From positions 329,745 to 393,744 of the forward strand of contig JBAQEZ010000003.1 of assembly GCA_049287005.1 (NCBI GenBank): a stretch of 64,000 bases of DNA, read 5' to 3'. Below, piece after piece: positions 3,520 to 44,735 of the stretch (the stretch's first letter is position 1; the number at the start of each line of letters is the position of its first letter). Position numbers and translations under genes: made by a program. A model generated the notes under the pieces. The model saw only the letters and a program-made list of their open reading frames with translations, did no database searches and was not told the DNA's origin. This stretch comes from Candidatus Moraniibacteriota bacterium (lineage in GTDB: Bacteria; Patescibacteriota; Minisyncoccia; Moranbacterales; UBA1568).

Positions 3520-6306
3520 ATGAGCGAAAAAGATATCCTTGCGGCTATTCAAAAAGGAGCGCATATCGCAGGTGAGGAGGCGCGCAAACACTTGGGAGCG
3601 GATATCGCTGCTGCGCGGGTTGCGGCGATGACTCCTGATACTTTAAACGTGGAGCAGGCTGCTGGTCCCGATGCTCCTGTGGCCGTGGAGGCGATATCAG
3701 GAGCGACGGATATTGATGCAACGAATGTAAGAAGTCTTCGTAAAAGAGCAAGAAGAGATAAGGGGGCAAAATTGACAACATCATCGGCTACTCCTGTGGC
3801 GGTTGCCGTTCAACCTGTACCGGAACCAGCATCGGAGCCCGCGGTAGCGGCGGACGTAAAGATGCCGGAAGAGCGGCAGGCGCGGGAATTCGTGGAAAGT
3901 ATCCCGGATGGCGAGGAGATAATTTTGGTGAGCAGGAAAGGGAGAAGGGAACACTATCGGCGGGATGGCGCTGATCTGGTAAAGAAAAATGGCGATATCG
4001 TGACATTACCGGCCTGGAAAAAACATCGGGACGGATGGACACGGTCTCAGGAAGGAGTGAGGATCGAGCCTGTTCCGCAGAAGAAGCAGTTACCGCAGCG
4101 TGAGGGGGAAACAGTCGAGCTCATGGATCCTGTGGCCATGGAACTTTTCGAATACGTGCGACGCGGAGACGGATATACTCTTGTCGGTTCGGACGGCAAG
4201 GATGCTGAGTCGATTACGGCGGACGAACTGGAGCGTTTGCTGCGGACTGGCAAACTGTCCTTTACCGAGCAAGTCGCATCGCTCGACAACGAGGAGCATG
4301 AGCAAGGCGATCCATTGGAGGAGACAGAGCTGTTGCCGCATGACAGTCCTGAGGGCAAAGCGATTCTGGAGCAGTTCGGATTGAATCCAGAGTCCGTCCG
4401 AACGCCGGCCGAGATTGAACAAAACGCCATCGAAGAAAAAATTGCCGCGCTGAAAAACGAGGTGGGAGAGATGCGCGCGAAGTACGCGAAGGAAGACTAC
4501 GAAAGCGCGAATAATTGGAAGAAGCTCGCGGCTTTTTTCCGTCTGAAAAAATCAGATGAAAAAAATGCGGATACCGCGTATTGGAAGGCGCATTATAATA
4601 ATAAGCTCATTGATCTGAAAAATCTGGAGCTTGAGAAAATCAAGTCGTCAGATATGACTGAGGCAGCCGCGAAAAAAGAAATAATCGGTTTGCTCGAGTA
4701 TTATAAAAAGAGTGAGCCGCTTCAGCTCCATGCAGACCGTACACAAGTGAAAGCGGAACATCAAGGATGGCCAGGCAAGGTGATGGGTGCGTTTGAGGCT
4801 ATCGGAAGGAAATACAACCAGCGTTCTCGTAAAGAGAAGTATGTGACTGCGGCGGCATTGTTCGGACTGGCTGGCGCGACTGGCGGTGCCTCGCTTATGG
4901 CGGGGAGATTTTTTTCGAGTGCGGGCACTTTTGTCGGTCTGGATGCTTTTTTTGAAGGAATGGCTGAGAAGAAAATGAATAAGAGAGCCACAGCAGAAGC
5001 TCAGGAAGCGATGTCGGTTTGGGAGGGGCGACGAGAAGAGGGTCGGTTATCGAAAGTGGATATCGAACATTTCAGCGAACTTTTGCAGAATGATATTTTT
5101 GCATCGGATAAAAGGCTCCAAGATCAGAAGCGCAGCGCGTTGTTTCGAAAATCTTTGGCAGCGGCGATGGCGGCGGGCGTAGCCTTCGGCTTGCCCGGGT
5201 GGCTGTTCAATGAGTTGGGCGGACGAGAGTTGGCGGGCGCGACAGCGGGGTTCGTGATGAAGGACCTGGGCGGACGCGAAGCGGCAGATTTGGCCAAAGA
5301 GCAATTGTCAGATGCTTTTCATGGCACCGATATGGCTCATCCCGAGATGGTGATTCATCCCCATAGTCTTGGAGAAACACTCGCGCCTGAACCACAGACC
5401 GCAGAGGCGACCGGTATGACGGATGAGCAGTCGCGCGCCCTGGCAGCATCATCCGCGGAAGCACGGCCCGATTTTATCAATGAATTCGTAACGAAAGATA
5501 TCGTCGTCCGGCAAGGCGACTCGGTATGGAAAATCGCCGACCGATTGGCGAAAGAGCTCGGCCTGGAAGAGAAAAGCCCCCAAAGCACGCATTTTATTGA
5601 TGCGATTAAAGACAAATATGGGGATGTTTTATTGAAAGAAGGGGAAACGATTAATTTTTCATCCCAGGGCATTGATAAGGGCTTTATTGAGAATGCTTTG
5701 GGAGACGCGAAGGCATTGACGGCAGAACAGGCGGCTTCCATCGCGGCCCATGATGTGAAGATTGAGGAATTCGCGGCGGCTCATCCGGATGTCACGCTGA
5801 CGGATGAAAGCGTGGACGCGATCTTGCGGGAGCCAGACGGAGCGGATGTTCCAGCCGATGCGGTATCGGAGACCGGAGGAGATGATGGGGGATTGGTCGC
5901 CAGCACCGCCGTGGCCCATGAGAAGGGTTGGCAGCCTGCGGATATACAGTATGATCGGGATATCGTATTGGGAGCCAAGTATGATGTCACGGCGTACACG
6001 GAGTTTTTCAAGTTGAATCCGGAAGCTTTTCCGCAGTTTAAGAAGGTCGGAGAATCCTATCTGGAATTCATCTTCCAAGGAGATCAGACTGACACGAGGG
6101 CTATCGGAGGGAAAATGTTCGGTGAGTTGCGACGTCTGCCGAGCGAATCTTTGGGTCAGTTTGTCAAAATGGCACAGGAAACCTATGGAAGCAAGTTCGG
6201 CCTGCCCAATCCGAAGGAACAAGTGTATGCATACGTCGCGCGCATGGCGATGCTCGGTATGGAGCATCCGACTGGCAAACTCATCCGTTTACCGCAGGCG
6301 ATATGA
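3520..6306 (+). CDS. large hypothetical membrane protein (928 aa) with two central hydrophobic segments and a possible LysM-like segment
   Basis: Long ORF spaced 52 nt after the previous gene. Hydrophobic stretches YVTAAALFGLAGATGGASLMAG and LAAAMAAGVAFGLPGWLF. The segment DIVVRQGDSVWKIADRLAKELGL resembles a LysM motif. Confidence 0.5.
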   Translation: MSEKDILAAIQKGAHIAGEEARKHLGADIAAARVAAMTPDTLNVEQAAGPDAPVAVEAISGATDIDATNVRSLRKRARRDKGAKLTTSSATPVAVAVQPVPEPASEPAVAADVKMPEERQAREFVESIPDGEEIILVSRKGRREHYRRDGADLVKKNGDIVTLPAWKKHRDGWTRSQEGVRIEPVPQKKQLPQREGETVELMDPVAMELFEYVRRGDGYTLVGSDGKDAESITADELERLLRTGKLSFTEQVASLDNEEHEQGDPLEETELLPHDSPEGKAILEQFGLNPESVRTPAEIEQNAIEEKIAALKNEVGEMRAKYAKEDYESANNWKKLAAFFRLKKSDEKNADTAYWKAHYNNKLIDLKNLELEKIKSSDMTEAAAKKEIIGLLEYYKKSEPLQLHADRTQVKAEHQGWPGKVMGAFEAIGRKYNQRSRKEKYVTAAALFGLAGATGGASLMAGRFFSSAGTFVGLDAFFEGMAEKKMNKRATAEAQEAMSVWEGRREEGRLSKVDIEHFSELLQNDIFASDKRLQDQKRSALFRKSLAAAMAAGVAFGLPGWLFNELGGRELAGATAGFVMKDLGGREAADLAKEQLSDAFHGTDMAHPEMVIHPHSLGETLAPEPQTAEATGMTDEQSRALAASSAEARPDFINEFVTKDIVVRQGDSVWKIADRLAKELGLEEKSPQSTHFIDAIKDKYGDVLLKEGETINFSSQGIDKGFIENALGDAKALTAEQAASIAAHDVKIEEFAAAHPDVTLTDESVDAILREPDGADVPADAVSETGGDDGGLVASTAVAHEKGWQPADIQYDRDIVLGAKYDVTAYTEFFKLNPEAFPQFKKVGESYLEFIFQGDQTDTRAIGGKMFGELRRLPSESLGQFVKMAQETYGSKFGLPNPKEQVYAYVARMAMLGMEHPTGKLIRLPQAI

Positions 6307-16670: not shown

Positions 16671-17159
16671 ATGTATCAAAAAGGAGCGCGTCTTCTGGCA
16701 TCATTTTTTCGGAAACGATTTTTCCTGCTCGGTCTTCTGACCATTTTGTTTGGTATCCGATTTTTCCTCTTTGCAGACGTGGAAAAAATAGAGCCTGCCT
16801 TTTCTCCGACAGGGATACGCATCAGTGGACAGCTCTATCGTTTGGAAATTGCCGAAACGGACGCCGAACGTGCGCAGGGTCTGGGCGATCGAGATACCCT
16901 GTGTGATAACTGCGGGATGCTGTTCATCTTTGCGGATCCGGGGAAATACGCGTTTTGGATGAAAGACATGCGCTTTCCGATCGATATCATCTGGCTGCTT
17001 GGCGACCGGGTGGTTTTTGTAGAGCACGCCGTGAGTCCTGATTTCGCCGGCATCGTGCATCCGACAGCTCCCGCGGACAGGGTGCTGGAGCTCAACGCCA
17101 ATCAAGGAAGCGGTGTCCGTGCAGGGGAGACGGTGCAGTTCGTGTACGAATCCTTTTGA
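16671..17159 (+). CDS. DUF192 (COG1430) domain protein
   Basis: CGMLFIFADPGKYAFWMKDMRFPIDIIWL matches the DUF192 core; N-terminal signal/TM segment. Confidence 0.75.
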   Translation: MYQKGARLLASFFRKRFFLLGLLTILFGIRFFLFADVEKIEPAFSPTGIRISGQLYRLEIAETDAERAQGLGDRDTLCDNCGMLFIFADPGKYAFWMKDMRFPIDIIWLLGDRVVFVEHAVSPDFAGIVHPTAPADRVLELNANQGSGVRAGETVQFVYESF

Positions 17160-17188
17160 AGTCTTCTCTCTGCCTCCAGGGAAACAAT

Positions 17189-17216
17189 AAAACCCCGCCG
17201 TTGCGGGGTTTTATAT
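17189..17216 (+). terminator. rho-independent terminator
   Basis: AAAACCCCGCCGTTGCGGGGTTTTAT hairpin followed by a T-run. Confidence 0.8.
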
Positions 17217-17261
17217 ATTTCAATGAAAGAAAGAACGGCTTGTCTGTGTTGCGGTTCGCGT

Positions 17262-17855
17262 CTAGCGGTAAGCGCTGACACGCGCAGAATATTTCTGTAG
17301 ATTCTGCAATTGCCTCTCGTTCAATGTCTTTGATTTCTCAATGCCTTGTTTGATAAGATCTTTCGAGAATTCTATCGATGTTTTGGTCGTCACCGCGCCT
17401 TGATAGCTGACGTTTTTTCGGAGGTAGTCTTCGATATACACCTTATGTTCGGCGGTCAAAGACGAGTCAGCATTCTTTTCGAGGTAATGAGCGAGCGCTC
17501 GGCGTGCCAAATGCGTCCTGCCGTTTCCCCGTTCAGCTTGTTCGATAAAGGATGTTTCAGTTTCGCGACTCAGTTCCGCGGTCACTACGACGCTATTCTT
17601 TACTTCTGCTTTTACGGCATCTTGGGACTGGGTGTCTTCGGTCTGCACGGTACTCGTCTCGCCGCTCTTCGTATCGAGGAGCGTATTGTCATCGGAGCTT
17701 ATTTGCGTGCGCTGCGAGTATGAGTAAATGCCCAGGGCAATCGCTGCAACAATGAAGACACTGACGATAATACGGAGATTTTCCTGAACCCAAGCCTTCG
17801 CCTGGTCGGCAGAGGATTCTTCGAATATGGGATCTTGTTGTTCCATGGTTTTCAC
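17262..17855 (-). CDS. hypothetical membrane-anchored protein (197 aa)
   Basis: Single N-terminal TM (IIVSVFIVAAIALGIYSY) then a Ser/Thr/Glu-rich region. Confidence 0.45.
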   Translation of the reverse strand: MKTMEQQDPIFEESSADQAKAWVQENLRIIVSVFIVAAIALGIYSYSQRTQISSDDNTLLDTKSGETSTVQTEDTQSQDAVKAEVKNSVVVTAELSRETETSFIEQAERGNGRTHLARRALAHYLEKNADSSLTAEHKVYIEDYLRKNVSYQGAVTTKTSIEFSKDLIKQGIEKSKTLNERQLQNLQKYSARVSAYR

Positions 17856-18387
17856 CTCTCTTTCTAGCTTATAATTAAGATTGTGAAAGTGCTGCTTGCG
17901 TTGAAGCCTGACTAGCGCTTATCAGGGCTATCTTTTATATCATTGATAAGCCGATCGACCTCCTGTCTTTTCATACTACGTCTTTGAAAAATGGCTGTCA
18001 ACTGGACAAAAGAGGTGTTTTTCGGCCTAATGCAGGGGTTTTTAGCCTGATAAAGATGCACGGCGCGTACCGCTCCCGTTTCGTGCGTGTGACGAACCGC
18101 AGGAAAATAAAAATGGAAAAATCAAAATGGAAAATGACCATGCAAAATAAATAAAAAGAAGCTTCCTTCCTGAAAAAAAATAATATTGCGAGAGAACGAC
18201 GTTGCTCCGCCTTGGCATGCGCAATATGGTTATGAAATCACTGGAAATACTTTTGATATTTTTCTGTATGGTGATAGGGAAGTTGAGATATTGTATTGTT
18301 TGTTTCGGTCATTTCATTTTTGATCCGAGAATAATTTTTCTCAAAGAAATTATTTGCTTGTCTACTCTTGACAAATATTTTTTCTCT

Positions 18388-18414
18388 TTGCATTTTGCAA
18401 AAAAAGAGTATAAT
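18388..18414 (+). promoter_or_regulatory. candidate promoter inside the AT-rich island (TTGCAT, 15 nt, TATAAT)
   Basis: Perfect -10 TATAAT at 18409-18414 with an imperfect -35. The spacer is short, so this is weak support only. Confidence 0.3.
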
Positions 18415-18564
18415 AAAAATGTACAGGAAATTTTTTCTGTATCACGCACAAAAAAATAAATATTTGTTGTGTGAAACAAAAAAATAATTCCATATTCTTT
18501 CTCTCTGTTCCATAAACATATGTGACATGAGAAGGGGGAAGTGGTGTAGAAGGAGGTGAATATT

Positions 18565-18687
18565 ATGGCAGCCAAGAAAAAAGCAGCAGCAAAGAAGAAA
18601 GTGGCAAAAAAGGTAACCAAGAAGAAAGTCGCCAAGAAGGCAGTAAAGAAGGTAACCAAGAGAAAAGCTACTAAGAAGCGCAAATAG
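18565..18687 (+). CDS. 40-aa lysine-rich basic protein, histone H1/Hc1-like or ribosome-associated basic peptide
   Basis: Strong RBS AGGAGGTG 7 nt before the ATG. Translation is MAAKKKAAAKKKVAKKVTKKKVAKKAVKKVTKRKATKKRK. A bidirectional terminator follows. The ORF is absent from the ORF track only because it is short. Confidence 0.6.
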   Translation: MAAKKKAAAKKKVAKKVTKKKVAKKAVKKVTKRKATKKRK

Positions 18688-18719
18688 TTTCAACGTTTCT
18701 TGTTCTTTCGGTTCAAATA

Positions 18720-18752
18720 AACAAAAACCCCGTAAATCGGGGTTTTTGTTTA
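18720..18752. terminator. bidirectional rho-independent terminator
   Basis: AAAAACCCCGTAAATCGGGGTTTTT lies between the small basic protein gene (plus strand) and prmC (minus strand). Confidence 0.8.
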
Positions 18753-18795
18753 TTGCACAAGATTTCCAATCTTTTGCATGCAGCGGTTTTGTTTC

Positions 18796-19719
18796 CTAGT
18801 TAGGAAAGGGTGTCTCGATCTGTTCTCGCCGTATCTCTACCACGCGCTCCCGATGTGCGAGATCCGTATGTATTATTGTCTGGGCTGCAGGGAAAAGAGC
18901 CGTGACGCGGGTTGTCAAAAGAGCGGCTTGTTCCGGGCTGATTTCGAGAAAGAGGACAACAGACTTGCATGTATGCAAGAATTTTTTGACGTCTCGGAGC
19001 AGTCGATAATAATGAGCCAGCCCGGCCTCCTCGCTTATGAGCGCGCTTTTCGGTTCGAAATCATGGACATCGGGCGCGGTATTGTCATACATGGATGATG
19101 AGAGATAGGGGAGGTTGGCAGCGATGATGATCTCACCTGCCAAAGCGAGTTCTGTGATGATCGGGGCAAGGAGATCGCCTTCATGAAATCTGATGAGGTT
19201 GTCAACATTCTGTCGCCGAGCGTTCTCTCTCGCGACAGCCAGGGCGCCTGCAGAGATATCTATAGCATGCAGTACGCAGCTGGGAGCGGAGGAATCCGGA
19301 GGTTGTTTCTCTCTTTCTTTCGCGAGAGAAATAATAATATTGCCGCTTCCTGTGCCAATATCGATCATTGTAATCTGGCTTTCGACTTTCAACTTTCGAC
19401 TTTCAACTTCGTTGAGTACCAGCTCAACGATCAGCTCTGTTTCTGGTCGCGGAATCAGCGTATCGGGAGTGACGAGAAAATCACGGCCATAGAATTCTTT
19501 GCGTCCGATGATAGAGGCGACTGGCTCGTGTGCCGCGCGGCGGGCGAAACACTCACGTACTTTCGTTTCAGCAGCGATGTCGAGCTCGTATTCCGGATGC
19601 GCCAGGAGAAACACCTGCTCTTTTTTGGACGCATACGCCAGCAGAATAAAAAAATCTTCCGGAGCGATCCGTGCTTCGGATGGAGAGAGAAAGATTTTCC
19701 GCAATTCGCTGACAGTCAT
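18796..19719 (-). CDS. prmC: release factor glutamine N5-methyltransferase PrmC (HemK)
   Basis: SAM motif IDIGTGSG and NLPY (NPPY-type) motif; sits immediately downstream of prfA in the classic operon arrangement. Confidence 0.85.
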   Translation of the reverse strand: MTVSELRKIFLSPSEARIAPEDFFILLAYASKKEQVFLLAHPEYELDIAAETKVRECFARRAAHEPVASIIGRKEFYGRDFLVTPDTLIPRPETELIVELVLNEVESRKLKVESQITMIDIGTGSGNIIISLAKEREKQPPDSSAPSCVLHAIDISAGALAVARENARRQNVDNLIRFHEGDLLAPIITELALAGEIIIAANLPYLSSSMYDNTAPDVHDFEPKSALISEEAGLAHYYRLLRDVKKFLHTCKSVVLFLEISPEQAALLTTRVTALFPAAQTIIHTDLAHRERVVEIRREQIETPFPN

Positions 19720-23904: not shown

Positions 23905-23977
23905 GCCACCTTAGCTCAGTTGGTAGAGCAACGCACTTGTAATGCGTGGGTCCTCGGTTCGAGTCCGAGAGGTGGCT
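23905..23977 (+). tRNA. tRNA-Thr (anticodon TGT)
   Basis: Manual fold: 7-bp acceptor GCCACCT/AGGTGGC, D-arm GCTCAGTTGGTAGAGC, anticodon loop CTTGTAA, T-loop TTCGAGT. Confidence 0.85.
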
Positions 23978-24031
23978 CAGTTTGAATAAAAGAGACGAGT
24001 TTGATAGGATGTGGTAGTCCTTTGTAAATAT

Positions 24032-24114
24032 GGGTAGGTGGTAGAGTGGTCTATTACAACAGACTGTAAATCTGTCGGCTTCGGCCTTCGGGGGTTCGAA
24101 TCCCTCCCTACCCA
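24032..24114 (+). tRNA. tRNA-Tyr (anticodon GTA) with long variable arm
   Basis: Acceptor GGGTAGG/CCTACCC, anticodon loop CTGTAAA, long variable arm, T-loop TTCGAAT. Confidence 0.8.
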
Positions 24115-24121
24115 CAAAAAT

Positions 24122-24151
24122 GAAAACAACTCCCGCAAGGGGGTTGTTTTC
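24122..24151 (+). terminator. rho-independent terminator after the tRNA-Thr/tRNA-Tyr pair
   Basis: GAAAACAACTCCCGCAAGGGGGTTGTTTTC hairpin. Confidence 0.7.
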
Positions 24152-24164
24152 ATTTGGGTAGGAG

Positions 24165-24298
24165 GAAGCCAACTGCTTGGCTTCCGAGAGGGATGAGAAG
24201 GCCGGAACGCTGTACGAGTTTGCCCATAGGGCAAGGCGAGTACCGTGAGGCGGGGTCGCGAAATTTTTCCGTCAGGAAAAATATTTGTGACCGAATCC
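24165..24298 (+). ncRNA. candidate structured RNA / repeat element, copy A
   Basis: Begins with hairpin GAAGCCAA-CTGC-TTGGCTTC, shares the block GTGAGGCGGGGTCGCGA with copy B, has a second hairpin ATTTTTCC-GTCA-GGAAAAAT, and ends TTGTGACCGAATCC. The terminal motif recurs at 24414-24430. Confidence 0.4.
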
Positions 24299-24497
24299 AT
24301 GTTAACGTGAAGGGCGTGAGTAGAAAGCGAGCGAGCGCAGCTTTCTGTGTGTAGCGCCAAGGCTCCGCGTCGGAGCGCGGAGGAATCCCTCTCGCTTACT
24401 GTTAGCAAATTATCTGTGACCGAATCCATTCCGCTGGACTTTTTCGTGAAAATCCTTACAATAGAAAAGTCACCGGAAGTAGATTTTTATTGAAACC

Positions 24498-24944
24498 ATG
24501 CAATTCAAAAAGAAACTTGTTTTTGAAACAGAATATTGGCGTGTTGGTTTGGCTGAAGAACAGACGTATCTTGGCTATTGTGTAGTTGCTTTGAAAAGGC
24601 AGGAAGGATTAAGGGGAGATTTGGTGGATCTTACACAAGAGGAGGCTATTGATTTTTTCAATGTGGTGAAGAAGTTTGAGGTAGCTCTTCGCGGCGCTTT
24701 TGATGCAACGATGTTTAATTGGTCCTGTCTCATGAACAATGCGTACCAGTTGCCGGATCCAAAACCACATGTTCATTGGCACGTGAAGCCACGATATAAT
24801 CATTCAGTTGAATTCGAAGGAGAGACCTTTGAAGATGTGAGATTCGGCCACCATTACACATTACTTGAAAATCTCAATCGGACGGTATCTGAGGAAGTGC
24901 AAGAAAAGATTATTGCAAAGATACAAGAGAGTTTGCCGTTGTAG
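24498..24944 (+). CDS. HIT (histidine triad) family hydrolase
   Basis: HVHWHV histidine-triad motif and HIT-like N-terminus. Its TAG stop lies inside the 5' end of the following tRNA-Thr gene. Confidence 0.75.
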   Translation: MQFKKKLVFETEYWRVGLAEEQTYLGYCVVALKRQEGLRGDLVDLTQEEAIDFFNVVKKFEVALRGAFDATMFNWSCLMNNAYQLPDPKPHVHWHVKPRYNHSVEFEGETFEDVRFGHHYTLLENLNRTVSEEVQEKIIAKIQESLPL

Positions 24945-25008
24945 CTCAGTTGGTAGAGCACGTCATTGGTAATGACGAGGTCATCGGTTCAATCCCGATC
25001 AACGGCTC
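24936..25008 (+). tRNA. tRNA-Thr (anticodon GGT)
   Basis: Acceptor GCCGTTG/CAACGGC, anticodon loop TTGGTAA, T-loop TTCAATC. Confidence 0.85.
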
Positions 25009-25187
25009 AAATAAGAGCAGAGGAGTGTTGATCATGTCGCTCGTCCGTCACGTCATTCGAGCAACGATAGTGACAAGTTGGGCGACAGAGTATTGACCAC
25101 GTCGTTCGCGAGCGACGGTGGTTGACGAAAGCAGTGTTTTCCAGTACAGTGAAAAAGCTTTGTAAACAGCTAGCAATCGAGAGGAAT

Positions 25188-25349
25188 ATGGGACAGATAA
25201 AAGATACGATAGTAAAACTCAAGTGTTCTCTGTGTAGCCGTATCACGCATTACACGAAACGCAATAAGAAAAAAGTGAAAGAAAAGCTTGCGCTCAGCAA
25301 ATATTGCCGTTTCTGTCAGAAGAACGCACCTCACACCGAGAGCAAATAG
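25188..25349 (+). CDS. rpmG: 50S ribosomal protein L33 (zinc-ribbon type)
   Basis: MGQIKDTIVKLKCSLCSRITHYTKRNKKKVKEKLALSKYCRFCQKNAPH has the L33 pattern with four Cys. Start reassigned to the internal ATG. Confidence 0.85.
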   Translation: MGQIKDTIVKLKCSLCSRITHYTKRNKKKVKEKLALSKYCRFCQKNAPHTESK

Positions 25350-25426
25350 TTCTCGGTTTTTGGTAATTTTGGTATAATGAATGTGGTTATGTAAGTTGTA
25401 TAACTTATAGTCACTATTCGTTATTT

Positions 25427-26077
25427 ATGTTGAGAGTAGAAGTAAAAGAAAAAGCGACTGCTCTGCGAGAACAGGGGTATTCGCTTAGTGAAATAAGTCA
25501 ACAGTTAAGTATTTCACAAAGTACCGCCAGCTTGTGGTTGAGGGGCATCAAACTATCTGAGAAAGCCAGGGGAAGAATAGATAGTCTGAGTGTTAGTGGA
25601 AGAAAAAAGGCTGTTGAGACAAATAGAAAAAAAAGAGCGGTAGAGGATATAGAAATAGCAGAAAAAGTAGAGAGGTATTTCTTGGGGCAACAAAAAATAG
25701 ATTCTAAAATTGCATGTGCTTTGTTATACTGGGGTGAAGGAACGAAGTATAGTGGCAATAAGTCTGTTTCTTTCATGAATGCGGATCCAGAAATGATAGG
25801 ATATTTTCTCCGTGCCTTCAGAAACTCCTTTTCTCTAGATGAAAAGAGGCTTAGGGCACTTATCCATTTGCATGAGTATCATGATGCGGACAAACAACTT
25901 AAATTTTGGTCAAATATAACAAAGATTCCCACCAGTCAATTCAATAAATCGTATCTCAAGAAGAACACGGGTAAGAGCGAAAAGGAAAATTATCCAGGCT
26001 GTATCAGCATTAGGTACTCTGATAATAAAGTCTATAAAGAATTGATGCTTATTATAGGAAAACTAGCGAAGATATAA
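25427..26077 (+). CDS. hypothetical HTH-domain protein (216 aa), low GC
   Basis: N-terminal HTH (GYSLSEISQQLSISQSTASLWLRG). Codon usage is visibly more AT-rich than neighbouring genes. It is inserted between rpmG and tRNA-Trp. Confidence 0.5.
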   Translation: MLRVEVKEKATALREQGYSLSEISQQLSISQSTASLWLRGIKLSEKARGRIDSLSVSGRKKAVETNRKKRAVEDIEIAEKVERYFLGQQKIDSKIACALLYWGEGTKYSGNKSVSFMNADPEMIGYFLRAFRNSFSLDEKRLRALIHLHEYHDADKQLKFWSNITKIPTSQFNKSYLKKNTGKSEKENYPGCISIRYSDNKVYKELMLIIGKLAKI

Positions 26078-26085
26078 AATAGAAT

Positions 26086-26156
26086 GCGAGTGTAGTTTAA
26101 CGGTAGAACAGCGGCCTCCAAATCCGCTAGCGAAGGTCCGACTCCTTCCACTCGTG
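26086..26156 (+). tRNA. tRNA-Trp (anticodon CCA)
   Basis: Acceptor GCGAGTG/CACTCGT, anticodon loop CTCCAAA. The T-loop TCCGACT has C at position 55. Confidence 0.75.
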
Positions 26157-26202
26157 CTAGAAATCATTTGGTATTTGTCATTTGAATTTTGATATTTCAA
26201 AT

Positions 26203-26274
26203 GGCCCTATCGTCTATCGGCTAGGACGCCAGGTTCTCATCCTGGTAAGAGGGGTCCGACTCCCCTTAGGGCTA
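26203..26274 (+). tRNA. tRNA-Glu (anticodon CTC)
   Basis: Close to E. coli tRNA-Glu in architecture: 3-bp D-stem GTC/GAC, anticodon loop TTCTCAT, T-arm AGGGG-TCCGACT-CCCCT, acceptor GGCCCTA/TAGGGCT. Confidence 0.75.
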
Positions 26275-26296
26275 CAACGAAGTTGAAGACATAAAA

Positions 26297-42825: not shown

Positions 42826-42854
42826 TTGACAGGGCTCGAACAGTTGTCTATACT
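42826..42854 (+). promoter_or_regulatory. rRNA promoter: TTGACA, 17 nt, TATACT
   Basis: Consensus -35 at 42826-42831 and a -10 at 42849-42854, about 380 nt upstream of the mature 16S 5' end. Confidence 0.6.
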
Positions 42855-43236
42855 GGTTAAGCAATCTATGAGCCTCAAAGCTCGAGTTTGCTTTTGTTTC
42901 TCTTTGTTTTTCTCAGGGTGAAATCAATAAAAGTCTTCGGACTTTTTTTCTAACGCTCTGAAAGTAACTTAACAATTGAGCCAAACCGTTTTACTTCATT
43001 TACCCCTCGTAAATTGGAGTAAGACAAAACAATAAAATAATCACAATTTTTTGTGGTTAGTCCTTGTTTTCTTTTTGTCCCAAGATTTATTTCTGGGATG
43101 AGAGGAAAATAATTGTAACATGAGGTTACACGGAAGAATCTCTATTCGGTAGCAGCGATGCTACCAACTAAATTGAATTTTTTTCTATCTTATTTTTTAC
43201 CTTCGGGTACGAAGTGGGGTGGATTGGATTGAATTT

Positions 43237-44735
<1,499 letters not shown>

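Follow-up and report, generated by a model that had tools for sequence, protein, structure and literature searches.

A conserved lysine- and alanine-rich small protein of Moranbacteria, a candidate nucleic-acid-binding polycation, and its structured leader RNA

What does a bacterial genome keep in a strikingly AT-rich gap between two protein genes, and what would a 40-residue protein made almost entirely of lysine, alanine, valine and threonine do for the cell? Both questions are raised by one locus in a 64,000-nucleotide (nt) stretch of DNA (hereafter, the window) from contig JBAQEZ010000003.1 of the Candidatus Moraniibacteriota assembly GCA_049287005.1. At positions 18565–18687 on the + strand lies an open reading frame (ORF) for a 40-amino-acid (aa) Lys/Ala-rich protein, preceded by an AT-rich intergenic region and followed by a terminator. 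The host belongs to the Parcubacteria group of the candidate phyla radiation (CPR, or Patescibacteria). CPR lineages account for much of bacterial diversity, no member can be cultured on its own, and most of their lineage-specific genes have no assigned role. Few features of its neighbourhood are better conserved than this very short gene, yet homology tools cannot score it. Our analysis shows that the ORF is conserved and under coding constraint, that promoter-like elements and a structured leader are conserved in front of it, and that its product is probably a nucleic-acid-binding polycation.

A lysine-rich protein under coding constraint

The frame at 18565–18687 translates to MAAKKKAAAKKKVAKKVTKKKVAKKAVKKVTKRKATKKRK followed by a stop codon, which is exactly the poly-Lys/Ala basic protein that an earlier note, made from the letters of this DNA, had described. 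Its composition is 20 Lys, 2 Arg, 9 Ala, 5 Val, 3 Thr and 1 Met, giving a net charge of +22, a mass of 4.46 kDa and an isoelectric point of about 12; Lys and Arg account for 55% of residues, and acidic and aromatic residues are entirely absent. Besides Met1, the only non-polar residues are Ala and Val, with no Leu, Ile, Phe, Trp or Tyr. Units of the form [A/V/T]2-K2-3 make up the chain throughout, framed by a fixed MAAKKK at the start and by (K/R)RK at the end, and the protein has no folded domain, signal peptide or membrane segment. A public assembly, GCA_049304235.1, annotates a 40-aa gene at exactly this position, and the mechanical ORF list gives the frame from an in-frame GTG upstream (18556–18687). 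All tryptic fragments have at most 4 residues, so the product would be invisible to trypsin-based proteomics.

The gene is widely conserved at its position. A PrmC-based scan in which each species was represented by one genome yielded 26 loci of Moranbacteria type, and the small ORF is present in all 22 that have enough flank past prmC, starting with MA(A/T/V)KKK, ending with (K/R)RK and always flanked by prmC and a conserved gene for a 194-aa membrane protein. The contigs of two loci, L011 and L025, end too early for scoring and stand outside the 22. PrmC identity across the 22 loci is only 42–59%. In the two most distant loci no such ORF is found near prmC; these are L026, with 38% identity in PrmC, and L027, from Uhrbacteria. 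A pattern scan of metagenomes added 15 further copies, some of them with diverged leaders. Lack of conservation of the ORF, or of its frame, in relatives had been named beforehand as what would refute the gene; the ORF, its frame, its ribosome-binding site (RBS) and its terminator are kept throughout the 22 loci.

The way in which the orthologues vary points to selection on a protein. Their lengths span 22–61 aa and differ only in frame, through the gain or loss of [A/V/T]2-K2-3 units, with third codon positions holding most of the variation within the conserved end codons. Across orthologues, Lys codons are used at an AAG:AAA ratio of 273:96 (74% AAG), against about 40% AAG in neighbouring genes. 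The longest run of A in any orthologue is at most 7, and runs are shorter than when the Lys codons are permuted (P = 0.015). Poly(A) is reportedly slippery, as Koutmou et al. are said to have described in 2015, and the preference for AAG together with the short A-runs fits selection against such sequence. In one locus (L023, approximately 4990–5090) the orthologue is interrupted by a run of N within its repeats and may exceed 61 aa; the repeat was evidently hard to assemble, or was masked.

Judged from these sequence features, 18565–18687 is almost certainly a real translated gene. The idea that the frame is open by chance, in intergenic DNA that is rich in purines and in A and T, draws on two properties of the region: purine-rich DNA lacks stops in several frames, as a side-effect of which almost every orthologue also has two open antisense frames opposite the ORF, and searches with hidden Markov models (HMMs) return no significant homologue, owing to low complexity. 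However, the ORF, start, Shine–Dalgarno (SD) sequence, stop and terminator are kept in 22 of 22 loci, the variation follows codon position and a public gene call coincides with the frame, which leaves the chance explanation a negligible probability.

Translation signals and terminator

Translation of the small gene would start from an SD sequence, AAGGAGGTGA, at 18550–18559 (+ strand), a perfect 10-nt complement of the 3′ end of the 16S ribosomal RNA (rRNA) encoded in the same window, with the ATG 5 nt further on. It is the sole perfect 10-nt copy in the 64 kb, the 16S end itself aside, and the near-perfect RBS reported earlier is thus borne out. The stretch AGGAGGTG occupies 18551–18558, with a spacer to the ATG of 6 nt (AATATT) instead of the 7 nt first given; in the orthologues, too, the ATG lies 6 nt downstream of an invariant GGAGGTGA. 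Two further loci, L098 and L104, share the RBS/start context TAGAAGGAGGTGAnnATTATGGC in front of a 108-aa multi-pass membrane protein that begins MAAKKTTTG and is otherwise unrelated, which indicates that TAGAAGGAGGTGAnnATTATGGC by itself is not diagnostic.

Downstream of the stop codon, a short, pyrimidine-rich 3′ untranslated region (18688–18713, + strand) carries a TTCTTTnGGTT motif that is partly kept in relatives. It runs into an intrinsic terminator at 18714–18755 that serves both strands and is common to the small gene and prmC. The terminator begins 27 nt past the stop codon and consists of a 15–17-bp stem between an A-run and a T-run (A5/T5), the stem being topped by CCCCG/CGGGG. Its folding energy is −24.1 kcal/mol for the + strand (z = −5.7) and −23.0 kcal/mol for the − strand (z = −5.5), and an equivalent hairpin stands 3′ of every orthologue, in agreement with the strong bidirectional terminator proposed from the letters. 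A simple pattern scan overlooked it because the T-run forms part of the stem.

Conserved promoter elements and a covarying leader

The region in front of the small gene contains a predicted sigma-70-type promoter at 18387–18414 (+ strand), comprising TTTGCA, a spacer of 16 nt (a T-run, then an A-run) and TATAAT at 18409–18414. This arrangement agrees with 10 of 12 consensus positions; the −35-like part is weak, and the TATAAT is invariant in relatives. A second element, TTGACA at 18368–18373 (+ strand), is also invariant and lies 35 nt upstream of the −10 (35–38 nt in diverged copies). The window has a single TTGACA-N30-40-TATAAT combination, against none in shuffled sequence. A spacing of 35–38 nt rules the TTGACA out as the −35 element for this −10; it may instead be a site for an activator or for the C-terminal domain of the RNA polymerase alpha subunit (alpha-CTD), or belong to a second promoter.

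Transcription from this promoter is predicted to begin near 18421, giving a 5′ leader of approximately 145 nt (18421–18564, + strand) for which RNAalifold finds three hairpins. H1 (18422–18441) is 1–2 nt from the predicted start, the classic position of hairpins that stabilise mRNA (ompA, aprE, ermC). H2 follows directly at 18442–18474 and is separated by an A-rich single-stranded linker (18475–18486) from an extended H3 (18487–18547). The core stem of H3, 18508–18514/18519–18525, carries a conserved (A/G)AAC loop and lies within a longer pairing of a pyrimidine tract with a purine tract.

This structure is conserved through compensatory change. In a MAFFT alignment of 19 sequences (A2), 92.3% of cells are paired and 10 of the 21 pairs show compensatory change; 43 cells have changed on both sides, a number that none of 500 shuffles equalled, and registers slid along the alignment are 18–61% paired. 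A model-fitted alignment of 32 sequences (A6) gives 94.7% of cells paired, compensatory change in 15 of 21 pairs, 96 cells changed on both sides (0 of 500 shuffles as high) and 18–65% pairing in slid registers; fitting to the structure biases A6 in its favour, and A2, made without such fitting, agrees with A6. The leader of the window has a minimum free energy (MFE) of −38.9 kcal/mol (z = −3.5), and the whole predicted transcript of approximately 335 nt folds at z = −5.9. A covariance model of the leader has a single match in the window, at 18413–18570 with 139.6 bits, and in related loci all strong matches (at least 45 bits) sit before the small ORF.

The SD is unpaired in the leader fold of the window. 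Among 18 orthologues, 13 also leave it unpaired in the MFE fold, and in the rest a CCUC(C) tract pairs with it. An alternative fold of the leader that sequesters the SD is therefore possible in these models. A scan with Rfam models of 17000–19500 in E-value mode had no match within 18421–18564 and only noise elsewhere, on which ground a lysine riboswitch, a T-box, a ribosomal-protein leader and other known leaders were rejected. Compared with the 16S rRNA (the 23S gene is not in the window), the leader shows no likeness beyond the SD/anti-SD match, and mimicry of rRNA was set aside for that reason. A leader peptide or attenuator was rejected as well, given that a terminator and then a convergent gene lie downstream.

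Organization of the AT-rich intergenic region

The AT-rich gap that drew attention to the locus turns out to be a composite. At 17860–18560 its guanine-plus-cytosine (GC) content is 0.358, against a window mean of 0.504 (standard deviation 0.05–0.06). The lowest-GC 200-nt stretch of the 64 kb (0.24, 18288–18487) and the lowest-GC 400-nt stretch (0.285, 18101–18500) both lie inside it, each more than 4 standard deviations under the mean. The earlier note had treated 17860–18560 as uniformly AT-rich, which holds for a core at approximately 18100–18540 (GC 0.299) and fails for 17860–18099, at 0.454.

A whole-intergenic alignment of 18 orthologous loci divides the region into three zones. Zone A (17847 to approximately 18010) holds the SD, a leader of approximately 120 nt and the promoter of the gene for the 194-aa neighbour on the − strand. 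Zone B (approximately 18010–18340) is a variable spacer between the two divergent promoters, AT-rich in all relatives and kept neither in sequence nor in length; the full intergenic region spans 570–1,000 nt among relatives. Zone C (approximately 18340–18564) is highly conserved and contains the promoter elements and leader of the small gene. Mechanical ORFs of 45–85 aa do occur in the gap, but its middle is conserved neither in length nor in sequence and the rest consists of conserved promoters and leaders, so the earlier judgement that it holds no credible ORF stands. The suggestion that the gap is a long regulatory leader survives in part: there is a conserved promoter with a leader of approximately 145 nt, but the 0.7 kb is not one element, and only approximately 18368–18564 belongs to the small gene.

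Other roles proposed for this DNA found less backing. Curvature, raised in the earlier note, is not borne out by A-tract phasing, which has a z-score of 0.4 at 10.5 bp in the window against a gap-permuted control; over 18 orthologues the phasing is marginal (mean z = 1.7, uncorrected P = 0.05). A replication origin (oriC) in the AT-rich island was rejected because 17860–18560 contains no DnaA box resembling TTATCCACA with at most one mismatch, and it is further opposed by the cumulative GC skew, which climbs steadily here without a change of sign. Three loose direct repeats, GGAAAATnAAAATGGAAAA, of 13–14 nt and spaced 13–14 nt apart lie in the variable spacer at 18102–18147 and are not conserved in relatives.

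Similarity searches and lysine-rich modules elsewhere

Sequence searches with the peptide place it outside modelled families. A phmmer-type search against 5.8 billion proteins returned nothing at E ≤ 0.01, and a profile of 23 orthologues reached a best E of 5 × 10−3 with unnamed proteins; it brought up other small ORFs of this kind, as well as N-terminal tails rich in Lys and Ala on other proteins. The peptide matched no Pfam family at E ≤ 1 and none of the NCBIfam families at E ≤ 1, and a sequence profile search of the PDB gave no match at E ≤ 10. The models of Hc1 (PF07432), HC2 (PF07382), linker histone (PF00538) and HU/IHF (PF00216) were matched neither by the peptide at E ≤ 1 nor by any of the 23 orthologues at E ≤ 10, and those of bS21, bS22, bL34, bL36, bL37 and bTHX in Pfam and NCBIfam gave no match either. 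The protein thus lies outside the Hc1, HC2, linker histone, HU and small ribosomal protein families as modelled, and missing matches are expected for low-complexity sequence. A single-sequence AlphaFold prediction gives one helix over residues 2–39 with a predicted local distance difference test (pLDDT) score of 92, which we read as helix propensity only. With a hydrophobic moment of 0.12 and no large hydrophobic residues beyond Met1, an antimicrobial or amphipathic membrane peptide was rejected.

Similar tails occur on other proteins. Five proteins of 88–93 aa (P0003, P0008, P0009, P0038 and P0048) carry an N-terminal MAAKKK...K/A tail fused to a conserved domain (...ELIDTGTNKLYVRRNARGTSFKEVDDVGRSL...), which suggests that the tail acts as a portable module. 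In other uncultured lineages, stand-alone ORFs of this type lie directly upstream of secA in L083 (3097–3198, MAAKKKAAKK...SAKRA) and L087 (3034–3141, MAAKKRKAAKK...AKRRR). Both are without an SD, both have a perfect DnaA-box-like TTATCCACA approximately 130–150 nt upstream of the ATG, and in both loci gene callers extend the frame to spurious upstream starts.

Comparison with known basic proteins

The C-terminal domain of eukaryotic linker histone H1 and the protamines are disordered when free, fold on DNA, neutralise its charge and condense it. Our protein resembles the H1 tail in being Lys/Ala-rich, in lacking acidic residues and in its high predicted helix propensity, and it resembles protamines in being an extremely basic, free-standing tail. 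It differs from H1 in having neither the winged-helix globular domain, for which it is too short, nor (S/T)PKK motifs, and from the Arg-based protamines in being Lys-based. Common ancestry with the H1 tail or the protamines cannot be shown for low-complexity sequence.

Among bacterial proteins, chlamydial Hc2 (hctB) and Bordetella BpH1 are built from short units of two to three basic residues plus Ala, Val or Thr, with even charge and length variation through repeat number, and they bind DNA and RNA, RNA binding by Hc2 being strong (PMC2848022). The likeness to our protein, which also consists of consecutive short basic units with Ala, Val or Thr and varies in size by in-frame whole repeats, is one of design and no evidence of homology. 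Hc2 is 165–237 aa long, with 36-aa higher-order repeats of pentamers and a distinct C-terminal domain, whereas the present protein has 22–61 aa and is the tail alone; Hc2, from another phylum, is developmentally regulated by a small RNA, whereas the CPR gene has a constitutive-looking promoter and a structured leader. In Pseudomonas, the disordered KPAA tail of PhaF binds mRNAs immediately 5′ of the SD and activates their translation (PMC12818456), and AlgP, an H1-like protein rich in Lys, Ala and Pro, is associated with polyphosphate granules and sets their spacing (PMC9239181). PhaF and AlgP share with our protein Lys/Ala-rich repeats whose number varies between species, but their tails contain proline (KPAA) and are attached to folded N-terminal domains, whereas ours is free-standing, has almost no proline and carries charge at a higher density (55% Lys plus Arg). 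The histone H1/Hc1-like composition suggested from the letters is accordingly apt as a likeness to the H1 tail, Hc2, BpH1 and the PhaF and AlgP tails, and falls short as a family assignment, given that no Hc1, H1 or HU model matches and no folded domain is present.

The small ribosomal proteins bS22, bL37, bTHX and eL41 have 20–40 aa, more than 40% basic residues, short ORFs that are easily missed and strong RBSs. They differ from the present family in being fixed in length, with specific conserved non-basic residues; ours is repetitive, with a threefold range of length. In its leader, the small gene recalls mRNA stabilisers of the ompA/aprE type, with a hairpin 1–2 nt from the predicted 5′ end, and ribosomal-protein leaders, with a covarying multi-hairpin RNA before a gene of nucleic-acid-binding type. 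It differs from known regulatory leaders in having no match in Rfam, and here the 5′ end is predicted and a regulatory role is deduced.

A candidate electrostatic binder of chromosomal DNA

By analogy with these proteins, the peptide probably binds nucleic acid. From the sequence we infer where transcription starts, that the product is abundant, that it binds nucleic acid with DNA as its main target, and that it regulates itself, all of which would fit together as follows. The small gene would be monocistronic and expressed at a high level from its own promoter, as suggested by a series of high-output signals: the AT-rich upstream DNA, a perfect −10, a hairpin at the 5′ end, an unpaired A-rich linker, a single-stranded 10-nt SD and a strong terminator. 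The resulting polycation would bind nucleic acid independently of sequence through electrostatics, and the charge of chromosomal DNA would be neutralised and the DNA compacted, as with the H1 C-terminal tail, Hc2, BpH1 and protamines. RNA binding would probably be a secondary activity, and the conserved leader may be a feedback site for the protein itself. DNA is favoured as the target because the closest designs (the H1 tail, Hc2 and BpH1) condense DNA, and because a threefold variation in length is tolerated, as expected if bulk charge matters. CPR cells are reportedly extremely small (approximately 0.01 cubic micrometre) with densely packed DNA, according to Luef et al. in 2015. Taken as a whole, the proposal of an abundant polycation, all tail, that attaches to nucleic acid through electrostatics and mainly to chromosomal DNA has in our estimate about an even chance of being right.

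Several points weigh against this DNA-binding interpretation. Composition cannot separate DNA binding from binding to RNA, the ribosome or polyphosphate, and Hc2 (PMC2848022) and PhaF (PMC12818456) themselves bind RNA. No HMM or structural family was matched, so the functional assignment comes from composition alone. A helix predicted by AlphaFold from a single sequence says little about a lone peptide of charge +22. The invariant TTGACA 35–38 nt upstream of the −10 falls outside the predicted −35/−10 pair, and the larger of the two leader alignments carries the bias described above.

The strongest competitor is an RNA- or ribosome-associated basic peptide, such as a lineage-specific small ribosomal protein, or an RNA chaperone or translation factor that would hold mRNA or rRNA by a disordered Lys-rich chain, with an autoregulatory leader. 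The covarying leader recalls those of ribosomal proteins, the expression signals match those of translation genes in strength, and the neighbourhood (prfA–prmC, rpsB–tsf) is translational; the mRNA binding of KPAA-type PhaF tails upstream of the SD, where they activate translation (PMC12818456), and the strong RNA binding of Hc2 (PMC2848022) would also be in keeping with it. However, a range of 22–61 aa among close relatives would be unusual for a stoichiometric component of the ribosome, the models of small ribosomal proteins in Pfam and NCBIfam gave no match, and the gene is never within a ribosomal-protein operon: it faces prmC in convergent orientation and has a promoter and a terminator of its own; nor does the leader resemble 16S rRNA beyond the SD (the 23S gene lies outside the window). 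We regard such a role as possible but rather unlikely. It is improbable that the peptide serves as counter-ion or organiser of some other polyanion, whether polyphosphate granules or anionic envelope polymers. Pure electrostatics would permit this, and AlgP provides a precedent on polyphosphate (PMC9239181), but AlgP and PhaF own a folded N-terminal domain that is absent here, the peptide has no signal peptide or membrane segment for a role in the envelope, and the conserved neighbourhood contains no polyphosphate genes.

Very improbable, finally, is that the functional product is the RNA, either as a structured transcript of approximately 335 nt or as a cis element, with the Lys-rich ORF incidental or acting as a sensor of Lys-tRNA supply or of poly-Lys stalling. 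Leader nucleotides are indeed more strictly conserved than the interior of the ORF, and the whole predicted transcript folds well (z = −5.9). A cis element would have no downstream gene to control, however, as the strong terminator is followed by a convergent gene; the perfect SD, fixed ATG spacing, wobble variation, in-frame lengths, conserved termini and AAG bias all argue for selection on the protein, and no Rfam family was matched.

Returning to the polycation that targets chromosomal DNA, a more specific version can be offered tentatively, and we hold it to be rather doubtful: a protamine-like, tail-only nucleoid protein, highly abundant, that would be the principal counter-ion for approximately 1 Mb of DNA in ultra-small cells and would regulate itself through the three-hairpin leader, the upstream AT-rich DNA or both. 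If true, it would amount to a minimal chromatin system specific to one CPR lineage, with analogous small ORFs in L083, L086 and L087. A Lys/Ala-rich, H1-like polycation is a known kind of bacterial molecule. For the tail-only, 22–61-aa form specific to CPR, with its unexplained promoter layout and its covarying leader outside Rfam, our literature searches found no description, and they returned no described Lys-rich or nucleoid protein of CPR. Should the protein be the main DNA-condensing or charge-neutralising molecule, a synthesisable 39–40-mer would become available for studying genome packing in ultra-small cells, and the leader would be a structured cis-regulatory RNA of a kind that Rfam lacks. 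Lys-rich micro-ORFs should not be discarded as low-complexity noise.

Genomic neighbourhood

The gene order around the small ORF is Tsf–RpsB–PrfA–PrmC–[small ORF]–[570–1,000-nt intergenic]–hyp194–DUF192–GT4–hyp135–RmuC, in which hyp194 is the 194-aa neighbour. In the window, prmC occupies 18796–19719 on the − strand, convergent with the small gene and with its stop at 18796; PrfA follows beyond PrmC on the − strand, and then rpsB and tsf. The same order is found in L061, where PrmC identity is only 34%. In three loci (L003, L019 and L028; for example, L003 5537–7026) the hyp194/small-ORF pair and the intergenic DNA between them are inverted in place between prmC and the DUF192 gene. This inversion as a single unit suggests that the divergent pair stays linked.

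The divergent neighbour is the gene for a 194-aa membrane-anchored hypothetical protein at 17262–17846 (− strand). Its product is 70–84% identical across species, compared with 42–59% for PrmC. More than 1,400 homologues were retrieved, all of them hypothetical, with no Pfam match and no functional clue; the JGI label of one homologue, ‘negative regulator of sigma E activity’, seems to have been assigned automatically and was given no weight. The gene has its own promoter at 17973–18001 (− strand), with TTGACA (18001–17996), a 17-nt spacer and TAGTAT (17978–17973), and the TGTCAAC block is invariant in relatives. The 5′ leader (17847–17966, − strand), whose 5′ end is predicted from the promoter, contains the SD CTAGAAAGAGAGGTGAA, in a context similar to that of the small gene, and the conserved blocks GGCTTCAACGCAAGC and AGGGGGTCGATA. 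The blocks AGGGGGUCGAUA and GGCUUCAACGCAAGC were also noted in this leader, together with a variable hairpin whose arms show apparent covariation.

A gathering-threshold scan of the whole window with Rfam models returned the 16S rRNA and transfer RNA (tRNA) genes only. The 16S gene (43238–44734) has a canonical promoter, TTGACA-17-TATACT, at 42826–42854, and an AT-rich leader of approximately 380 nt (window 42826–43237) that is the second most AT-rich segment of the window; the upstream regions of the small gene and of the 16S gene are thus its two most AT-rich segments. The window contains no 23S gene, and the rRNA genes may therefore be unlinked. Downstream of tsf, five tRNA genes (Thr-TGT, Tyr, Thr-GGT, Trp and Glu-CTC) lie at 23905–26275, with small ORFs between them.

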